Source of the DNA: Escherichia coli
GTDB taxonomy: Bacteria; Pseudomonadota; Gammaproteobacteria; Enterobacterales; Enterobacteriaceae
DNA: 64,000 nt
Strand: one strand, 5' to 3'
Assembly: GCF_003334785.1 (NCBI RefSeq)
Contig: NZ_QOWV01000002.1
Shown: positions 26,009-26,114 of the stretch, one piece after another
How positions within the stretch are numbered: the first letter of the stretch is position 1
How the letters are laid out: each line of letters opens with the position of its first letter
The notes under the pieces: model-generated
The model's database searches: none
Told to the model about the DNA's origin: nothing
Seen by the model: only the letters and a program-made list of their open reading frames with translations
Made by a program: the position numbers and the translations under genes

Positions 26009-26114
26009 TCACCCTGTGTGACGTCGATTCGGGCGTCACGCTCTCTCCTTTTTCATTTTACCTTCTGCGGAGGGTAGGGGGAGCTTTTACCTGAAATACG
26101 CCACGGAGGCGGGT

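Follow-up and report, generated by a model that had tools for sequence, protein, structure and literature searches.

The window analysed here, a 64-kb stretch of Escherichia coli DNA, carries on its plus strand a eut operon that is intact from eutS to eutR. The gene of the major BMC-H shell protein, eutM, ends with the stop codon TAA at 26006-26008, and the gene of the pentameric vertex protein, eutN, starts with ATG at 26115; the 106-nt spacer at 26009-26114 given in the original prediction is borne out by the RefSeq end of eutM and by the position of this ATG. The same prediction described most eut genes as overlapping or lying less than 15 nt apart, which holds for 11 of the 16 junctions of the operon (overlap or ≤15 nt) but not for the remaining five, with gaps of 20, 38, 45, 106, and 216 nt. 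The widest of these is found between eutG and eutH (216 nt), not between eutM and eutN, and eutE begins 11 nt downstream of eutN. A stretch of 721 bases around the spacer matches many complete genomes with 100% identity and is present in 5409 of 5426 E. coli genomes. Positions 31281-34080 of the window are collinear with a record in which eutA adjoins eutB and are free of the CPZ-55 prophage, which splits the eut operon of E. coli K-12 MG1655. As regards the start of eutM, the mechanical open reading frame from ATG 25673 (111 aa) overlaps the end of eutD (pta), and RefSeq places the start at ATG 25715 (97 aa), with the Shine-Dalgarno (SD) sequence AAGAGGAA 6 nt upstream; the gene length of 335 bp listed for eutM in the LF82 paper is that of the longer frame. 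The features of the junction, all on the plus strand, are the following.

25715-26008, plus strand: eutM coding sequence, major BMC-H shell protein (RefSeq annotation of the identical sequence)
26009-26114, plus strand: eutM-eutN intercistronic spacer, 106 nt, single-copy and unannotated
26016-26041, plus strand: hairpin 1, a 10-bp stem (26016-26025 with 26032-26041) with two G-U pairs and the loop GAUUCG, -16.2 kcal/mol
26043-26083, plus strand: hairpin 2, predicted, in total -16.8 kcal/mol
26085-26098, plus strand: A/U-rich motif UUUUACCUGAAAUA, predicted to be single-stranded, after both hairpins
26100-26114, plus strand: eutN translation initiation region, SD GGAGG at 26105-26109, 5 nt before the ATG
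26115-26402, plus strand: eutN coding sequence, pentameric vertex protein
26147-26172, plus strand: eutN codons 11-19, predicted partner of the eutN SD and start codon

Hairpins and tracts of the spacer

Hairpin 1 begins 7 nt after the eutM stop codon UAA and contains an inverted repeat that is exact at the DNA level, GTGACG (26018-26023) and CGTCAC (26034-26039); the repeat proposed earlier for about 26020-26041 is thus real, with its exact arms 2 nt farther to the left. In hairpin 2, an outer helix formed by CUCUCCU (26043-26049) and GGGGGAG (26077-26083) is separated by a 9-nt internal loop from an inner hairpin at 26059-26076 (UACCUUC-UGCG-GAGGGUA). The purine-rich tract that had been pointed out upstream of eutN is present as GCGGAGGGUAGGGGGAGC at 26067-26084; it is not the SD of eutN and instead pairs with the pyrimidine tract 26043-26049 as hairpin 2, and the SD itself is found within a small predicted hairpin, GCC-ACGGA-GGC. 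The fold expected for 26009-26114 is recovered in the form of the two sense-strand hairpins: the whole spacer folds in the sense direction with -43 kcal/mol (z = -3.2; 2 of 200 shuffles were equally good), compared to only -31.8 kcal/mol for the antisense strand. Antisense folding is weaker because five of the pairs are G-U, and the structure therefore belongs to the mRNA and not to the DNA.

In the 64 kb there is a single match to the pattern GTGACGYC-N-GRCGTCAC, and none in 100 shuffles. With the covariance models of Rfam 15, no match up to E = 10 was obtained between 25000 and 27000, barring a chance P17 hit elsewhere, and none in eight orthologous eutM-eutN loci, so that a known RNA family or riboswitch could be dismissed. 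RNA structures that tune expression from within eut loci are established in Firmicutes, where the AdoCbl riboswitch sRNA EutX/Rli55 and the EutV ANTAR terminator hairpins are at work (PMC5821096). In contrast, the E. coli spacer has neither a riboswitch nor an ANTAR match in Rfam, gene order and regulator (EutR) differ, and nothing suggests ligand or antiterminator control. No description of the eutM-eutN spacer element was found in the literature searched, and an earlier mention, for example of the Salmonella REPs, may exist.

Several simpler explanations of the spacer were tried and discarded. A CRP-type DNA palindrome was rejected on account of the spacing of TGTGA...TCAC (14 nt, not 6) and of the G-U pairs, which make the symmetry specific to RNA. 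A small open reading frame from GTG 26018 (19 codons) has no SD, lies inside hairpin 1, and has its frame broken by loop insertions and deletions in Citrobacter (+4, +8, +14, and +15 nt). No sigma-70-like site is seen in the spacer on either strand, the nearest being 26176-26203 inside eutN, and an internal eutN promoter was rejected, TGAAAT and CCTGAAA not being, by eye, a credible -10 or sigma-32 site. The resemblance of ACCTGTAAT at the eutM stop and ACCTGAAAT at 26089 to the target-site duplication of a mobile insertion is coincidental, because in Citrobacter eutM ends with GACATGTAA although the second copy is retained; the twofold repeat of TTTTACCT as a sign of insertion was dropped since it is not conserved. 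A long-range partner for the single-stranded motif was rejected as well: no complement closer than three mismatches is found in the 64 kb, and such matches occur at chance frequency.

Conservation of the spacer and its replacement by REPs

Of 5426 E. coli genomes, 5408 carry a 92-nt core of the spacer, in a single place each (median 1), and no annotated feature covers it. A scan with EutN, one genome per species, yielded 48 loci. The 39 enterobacterial loci in which eutN follows eutM all have a gap of 52-144 nt between the two genes, compared to 10-15 nt for eutN-eutE and usually 36-41 nt for eutD-eutM in these enteric bacteria; in Pseudomonas nitroreducens and two Rhodocyclaceae it extends to 131-211 nt. 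Among the proteobacterial eut loci examined, the long gap is always particular to the junction of eutM and eutN. Some hairpin is found there in 42 of 42 loci with this gene order, beginning in most of them about 6-14 nt past the eutM stop. Three short contigs among the EutN matches (269-466 bp, EutN 87-100% identical to E. coli), from assemblies labelled Gemelliphila, Prolixibacteraceae, and Caballeronia, look like enterobacterial contamination of these assemblies.

Spacers with hairpin 1 (GUGACGYC...GRCGUCAC) are found in Escherichia, the Citrobacter freundii complex, Klebsiella spallanzanii, Buttiauxella, Entomohabitans, and Yokenella. When gaps are counted as mismatches, these hairpin-type spacers share 76-84% identity between E. 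coli and the C. freundii group, compared to 51-57% identity at the fourfold degenerate sites of eutM, eutN, and eutE; within Escherichia, the values are 98-100% for the spacer versus 82-89% at such sites. By this measure, the spacer is under purifying selection. Its pairing is kept as well: 88.7% of the alignment cells assigned to stems are paired, versus 41-57% after a shift of the 3' partners by 1-3 columns, and the covariation score is 0.226 versus at most 0.112 for the shifted partners, with 10 pairs changing on both sides, in a set of closely related sequences in which Buttiauxella rows of uncertain alignment contribute part of the signal for hairpin 2. In a dedicated alignment the 8-bp core of hairpin 1, GUGACGYC/GRCGUCAC, is paired in 16 of 16 distinct relatives around a loop of 4-25 nt; pair 12-37 appears as CG, UG, or UA, and pair 6-43 as GC or AU. 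For hairpin 2, compensatory changes occur in Citrobacter and K. spallanzanii. RNAalifold independently recovered hairpin 1, the inner part of hairpin 2, and the small hairpin around the eutN SD. The structure is accordingly conserved across species in identity, covariation, and consensus fold, and the original prediction, which would have failed without such conservation, stands in this respect. Of five polymorphisms within Escherichia (E. coli and close relatives), two lie where helix and loop of hairpin 2 meet, and the other three in loops or at sites that are otherwise weakly paired. The UACCUGAA motif is retained even in Buttiauxella and Entomohabitans, and CACGGAGGCGGGU in the eutN initiation region is kept in nearly all enterobacterial loci, those with REP-type spacers included.

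Two individual loci deserve mention. In E. coli strain 90-1 (NZ_CP050047.1), an IS911 copy sits inside the conserved single-stranded motif, after ...GGGGGAGCTTT, and splits eutM from eutN, so that this strain is probably polar-null for the distal eut genes. K. spallanzanii combines a hairpin-type spacer with an EutM that is 98% identical to that of E. coli, other Klebsiella having REP-type spacers, which suggests, on sequence comparison, a horizontal exchange of that part of the eut operon.

REPs follow a consensus of the GCCGGATG...CTTATCCGGCCTAC type and are present in hundreds of copies per genome. They replace the hairpins at the eutM-eutN junction of Salmonella, most Klebsiella, C. koseri, C. 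amalonaticus, C. sedlakii, Pseudocitrobacter, and Pluralibacter, where they usually begin 6-14 nt after the stop codon. The assignment was made by local alignment to the REP units of the window itself (29843-29927), with shuffled sequences as controls: scores of 28-50, in excess of the respective shuffled maxima, are reached by most of the spacers of Salmonella, Klebsiella, and C. koseri (one K. oxytoca locus 22-24), and the E. coli spacer scores 14-16, below its shuffled maxima of 20-22. The other hairpin-type spacers likewise fail to exceed their shuffled controls, and nearly all of the REP-type spacers do exceed them. The E. coli element shares with REPs and BIMEs the form of an imperfect palindrome in the intergenic space of an operon, and true REPs do occupy eutG-eutH in this window and eutM-eutN in Salmonella and Klebsiella; it differs from them in having no REP similarity above shuffles and in occurring once per genome. 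Membership in the REP or another repeat family was rejected on these two grounds, the score against the REP consensus staying below shuffles and the copy number being one per genome. As selfish elements, REPs will occupy whatever intergenic space is free, and their presence therefore need not mean functional equivalence to the hairpins. The spacers of Intestinirhabdus, P. nitroreducens, and the two Rhodocyclaceae contain neither hairpin 1 nor REPs; they are long, G+C-rich, and strongly self-paired, and appear as further independent sequence solutions at the same junction.

Output of EutM and EutN

Microcompartment operons deliver very unequal amounts of their shell proteins from a single transcript. 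A wrong amount of vertex protein leads to malformed microcompartments, elongated shells being a sign of too little EutN. With hexamers and pentamers at about 100:1, a conserved RNA element exactly at the eutM/eutN junction offers a concrete, mutable handle on how this is brought about, and in cloning eutSMNLK or re-ordering eut genes for synthetic nanocompartments a regulatory spacer may be lost or kept unawares.

With EutQ set to 100, the iBAQ values in E. coli W3110 under induction are 96 for EutM, 39 for EutL, 27 for EutE, 11 for EutS, 10 for EutD, 8 for EutK, and 1 for EutN, the figure for the 95-residue EutN being imprecise; EutB, EutC, and EutL are abundant in these data (PMC11334477). 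At the RNA level, the RPKM values of AIEC LF82 are 108 for eutD, 55 for eutM, 5 for eutN, 14 for eutE, and 13 for eutJ without induction, and 357, 177, 62, 149, and 147, respectively, with induction (PMC6379400). In this single data set of absolute values, eutN mRNA lies below that of eutM about 3-fold (2.9) in the induced and 11-fold in the uninduced state, and eutN is the gene with the lowest mRNA of the operon in both; the induced step from eutM to eutN is no larger than jumps between other neighbours, such as eutT to eutD (4.3-fold). A rough cross-study ratio of protein to mRNA, with differing strains and conditions, comes to about 0.54 for eutM, 0.18 for eutE, and 0.016 for eutN. EutE is present at 27 times the amount of EutN although its gene lies just downstream of eutN, and most of the difference between EutM and EutN must therefore be translational; together with the 10-fold lower amount of EutD compared to EutM on the same message, this indicates that translation dominates within the operon. 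The difference may be divided into about 3-fold at the level of RNA and about 30-fold in translation.

The SD of eutN, GGAGG, is strong (-9.5 kcal/mol). The eutN initiation region has a predicted unpaired probability of 0.12, the lowest of the 17 eut genes (others 0.23-0.58). This low accessibility results from predicted pairing with eutN codons 11-19 and not from the spacer hairpins, and for this reason sequestration of the eutN SD by the latter was rejected. In 35 of 43 loci, which are phylogenetically non-independent, predicted accessibility is lower for eutN than for both eutM and eutE (means 0.37, 0.58, and 0.47, respectively), and the occlusion is strong only in Escherichia (0.12), values elsewhere being 0.22-0.61. 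The role in setting a high EutM to low EutN stoichiometry that had been assigned to the spacer is therefore upheld in part: a structured and conserved spacer does separate two proteins present at about 96:1, but its hairpins do not sequester the eutN ribosome binding site, and the mRNA step across it, about 3-11-fold, cannot account for a 100-fold difference, with EutE at 27 times EutN.

Readings of the eutM-eutN junction

Judged from sequence, predicted folding, and the expression tables published for two different strains under different conditions, the reading favoured for the two-hairpin structure, tentatively and at somewhat less than even confidence, is that of an ordinary mRNA boundary inside the operon, of the malE-malF type, protective or attenuating and leading to differential operon decay, which would help to keep the output of EutM far above that of EutN. 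The sense RNA would present two stable hairpins side by side and, after them, a single-stranded stretch rich in A and U; an endonucleolytic cut in or past this stretch, probably by RNase E, would leave both hairpins at the 3' end of the eutM-bearing fragment, where they would block 3'-to-5' exonucleases such that the eutM message outlasts the eutN-proximal message. The motif at 26085-26098 is a candidate entry site for RNase E, the GC|UUU at 26083-26087 fitting the consensus RN|WUU quoted in PMC5927463. Hairpin 1 with its interrupted U-rich tail might in addition bring a minority of the transcripts to an end. Of the EutM to EutN ratio of roughly 100:1, the module can explain no more than a few-fold, and the remainder would be attributed to poor initiation at eutN. 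We infer cleavage, protection, and any effect of the module on expression from its structure, conservation, and position and from its replacement by REPs.

REPs are the classic 3' stabilisers of malE, and the malE-malF example has been extended to a general concept, differential operon decay, in which 3' protective structures are conserved (PMC5927463). Two marks of such structures are found here, namely a stable structure right after the higher-expressed cistron and its conservation in relatives. A hairpin is common to all versions of the junction and a U-tract is not; termination is therefore unlikely as the shared function, and a REP-like block of 3'-to-5' exonucleases is indicated instead. 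By analogy, the functionally closest system would be the malE-malF REP, or any 3' protective intercistronic structure. As in malE-malF (Newbury et al. 1987; Dar & Sorek 2018, PMC5927463), stem-loops right after the cistron that is needed in excess are hairpins inside a polycistron, kept across enterobacteria, and sister genera do have REPs at eutM-eutN; on the other hand, the E. coli eut element is not a REP, is single-copy, and adds a second hairpin made of pyrimidine and purine tracts and a conserved single-stranded motif. The conservation of this motif and of both tracts exceeds what a generic exonuclease block needs, and speaks to that extent against the protective boundary, as does the return of eutE and eutJ to about 150 RPKM under induction (PMC6379400). 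In the E. coli Term-seq tables searched, no 3' end on the sense strand falls within eutM-eutN, the operon being silent in the media used. Should the element be only a generic stabiliser hairpin, it would represent one further case of a well-known mechanism.

The main rival is a translational insulator, a possible though doubtful reading, according to which a long structured gap uncouples eutN from the ribosome flux of eutM and any stable long structure would serve. Neither re-initiation nor scanning into eutN would then take place, and eutN would rely on de novo initiation at a site sequestered by codons 11-19. Such a function would agree with the position of the gap between the most abundant shell protein and the least (EutM 96, EutN 1; EutE 27), with a protein yield per mRNA that is about 30-fold lower for eutN than for eutM in the rough cross-study comparison, and with an initiation region that is the least accessible of the 17 genes and falls below eutM and eutE in 35 of 43 loci, as well as with the retention of gap length and structure while the sequence is swapped for REPs or other GC-rich hairpins. 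However, the occluding partner lies in the eutN coding region, outside the spacer hairpins, strong occlusion is limited to Escherichia, and the eutN SD GGAGG is itself strong (-9.5 kcal/mol); the loci compared for accessibility are phylogenetically non-independent, iBAQ is imprecise for a protein of 95 residues, and why the tracts and the UACCUGAA motif are conserved in sequence is left unexplained. Insulation and an RNA-level boundary may also act jointly.

It is rather unlikely that the module constitutes a dedicated, undescribed cis-regulatory RNA, composed of the two hairpins and UUUUACCUGAAAU, that is specifically recognised and programs the stoichiometry of the shell. If it were, motif and tracts would be recognised by RNase E, by an sRNA with Hfq, or by a protein such as CsrA, and the same task would have been solved repeatedly, by REPs in Salmonella and Klebsiella and by GC-rich hairpins in Intestinirhabdus, Pseudomonas, and Rhodocyclaceae.

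Less probable still is a leaky intrinsic terminator, in which hairpin 1 with UCUCUCCUUUUUCAUUUU, or hairpin 2 with CUUUUA, would cut transcription from eutN onward. A G+C-rich 10-bp stem followed by a pyrimidine- and U-rich tail is indeed what Rho-independent terminators and attenuators have in common with the spacer; hairpin 1 (10 pairs, 6 of them G-C) is the top terminator-like site in 18 kb (22-40 kb), its stem energy per nucleotide of -0.62 is comparable to that of textbook terminators scored alike, and the mRNA of eutN, eutE, and eutJ lies under that of eutD and eutM, most clearly without induction. The U-tract of the eut spacer, in contrast to that of such terminators, is interrupted by C and distal, starting about 7 nt after the stem, and gives a T-score of about 2.0 versus 4.2-4.7 for trpA and the his attenuator in an uncalibrated scoring; the tail UCUCUCCUUUUUCAU doubles as one strand of hairpin 2, in which it is paired. 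U-runs are moreover missing from orthologous spacers, namely those of Yokenella and Entomohabitans and all of the REP type, the number of terminator-like sites in the region equals chance (25 found versus 22.4 expected), eutH-eutC mRNA exceeds that of eutM, and EutB, EutC, and EutL are abundant. A d'Aubenton-Carafa-style score was set aside as evidence, since with modern energies it misclassifies textbook terminators.

That the spacer has no dedicated function, but was left behind by an old insertion or by REP turnover and tolerated at the only junction that permits it, with incidental hairpins, is improbable. The content of the junction does vary by genus (hairpin, REP, and other GC-rich types), one E. 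coli strain carries IS911 inside the spacer, and four REPs are likewise accommodated in the eutG-eutH gap of the E. coli operon; against this, the spacer evolves far more slowly than fourfold sites, its stems stay paired through compensatory changes while loop lengths shift, and neither a target-site duplication common to the species nor a repeat family is found. Liang, Rudd and Deutscher (2015) reportedly described REPs within 15 nt of a stop codon as impeding translation termination, and hairpin 1 lies 7 nt after the UAA, with REPs or other hairpins of relatives mostly 6-14 nt after the stop; yet control of this kind at the ends of the spacer, be it a brake on eutM termination or repression of eutN by CsrA at the GGA motifs in GCGGAGGG (26067-26074) and in the loop ACGGA of the SD hairpin (26103-26107), is very improbable even when both versions are taken together, given that EutM is the most abundant shell protein, the opposite of what a brake predicts, and that, for all the conserved small hairpin with its GGA loop around the eutN SD and a second GGA 36 nt upstream, a GGA is expected within any SD and REP-type spacers have no upstream GGA tract.

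Two further observations concern the neighbourhood of the spacer. The eutG-eutH gap holds at 29843-30030 a BIME-like cluster of four REP units arranged as two inverted pairs. According to the LF82 RNA-seq table, eutH mRNA lies about 3-fold above that of eutG, suggestive of a second boundary or of an internal start in this gap. Opposite the 3' part of eutM, an antisense RNA 3' end at about 25938 on the minus strand (MG1655 2572217, plus strand) is listed in the Term-seq supplement of Adams et al. 2021 (PMC7815308). It is located 11 nt beyond an imperfect hairpin with arms at 25949-25965 and 25968-25984, and the transcript to which it belongs must have its start within the spacer or beyond it.
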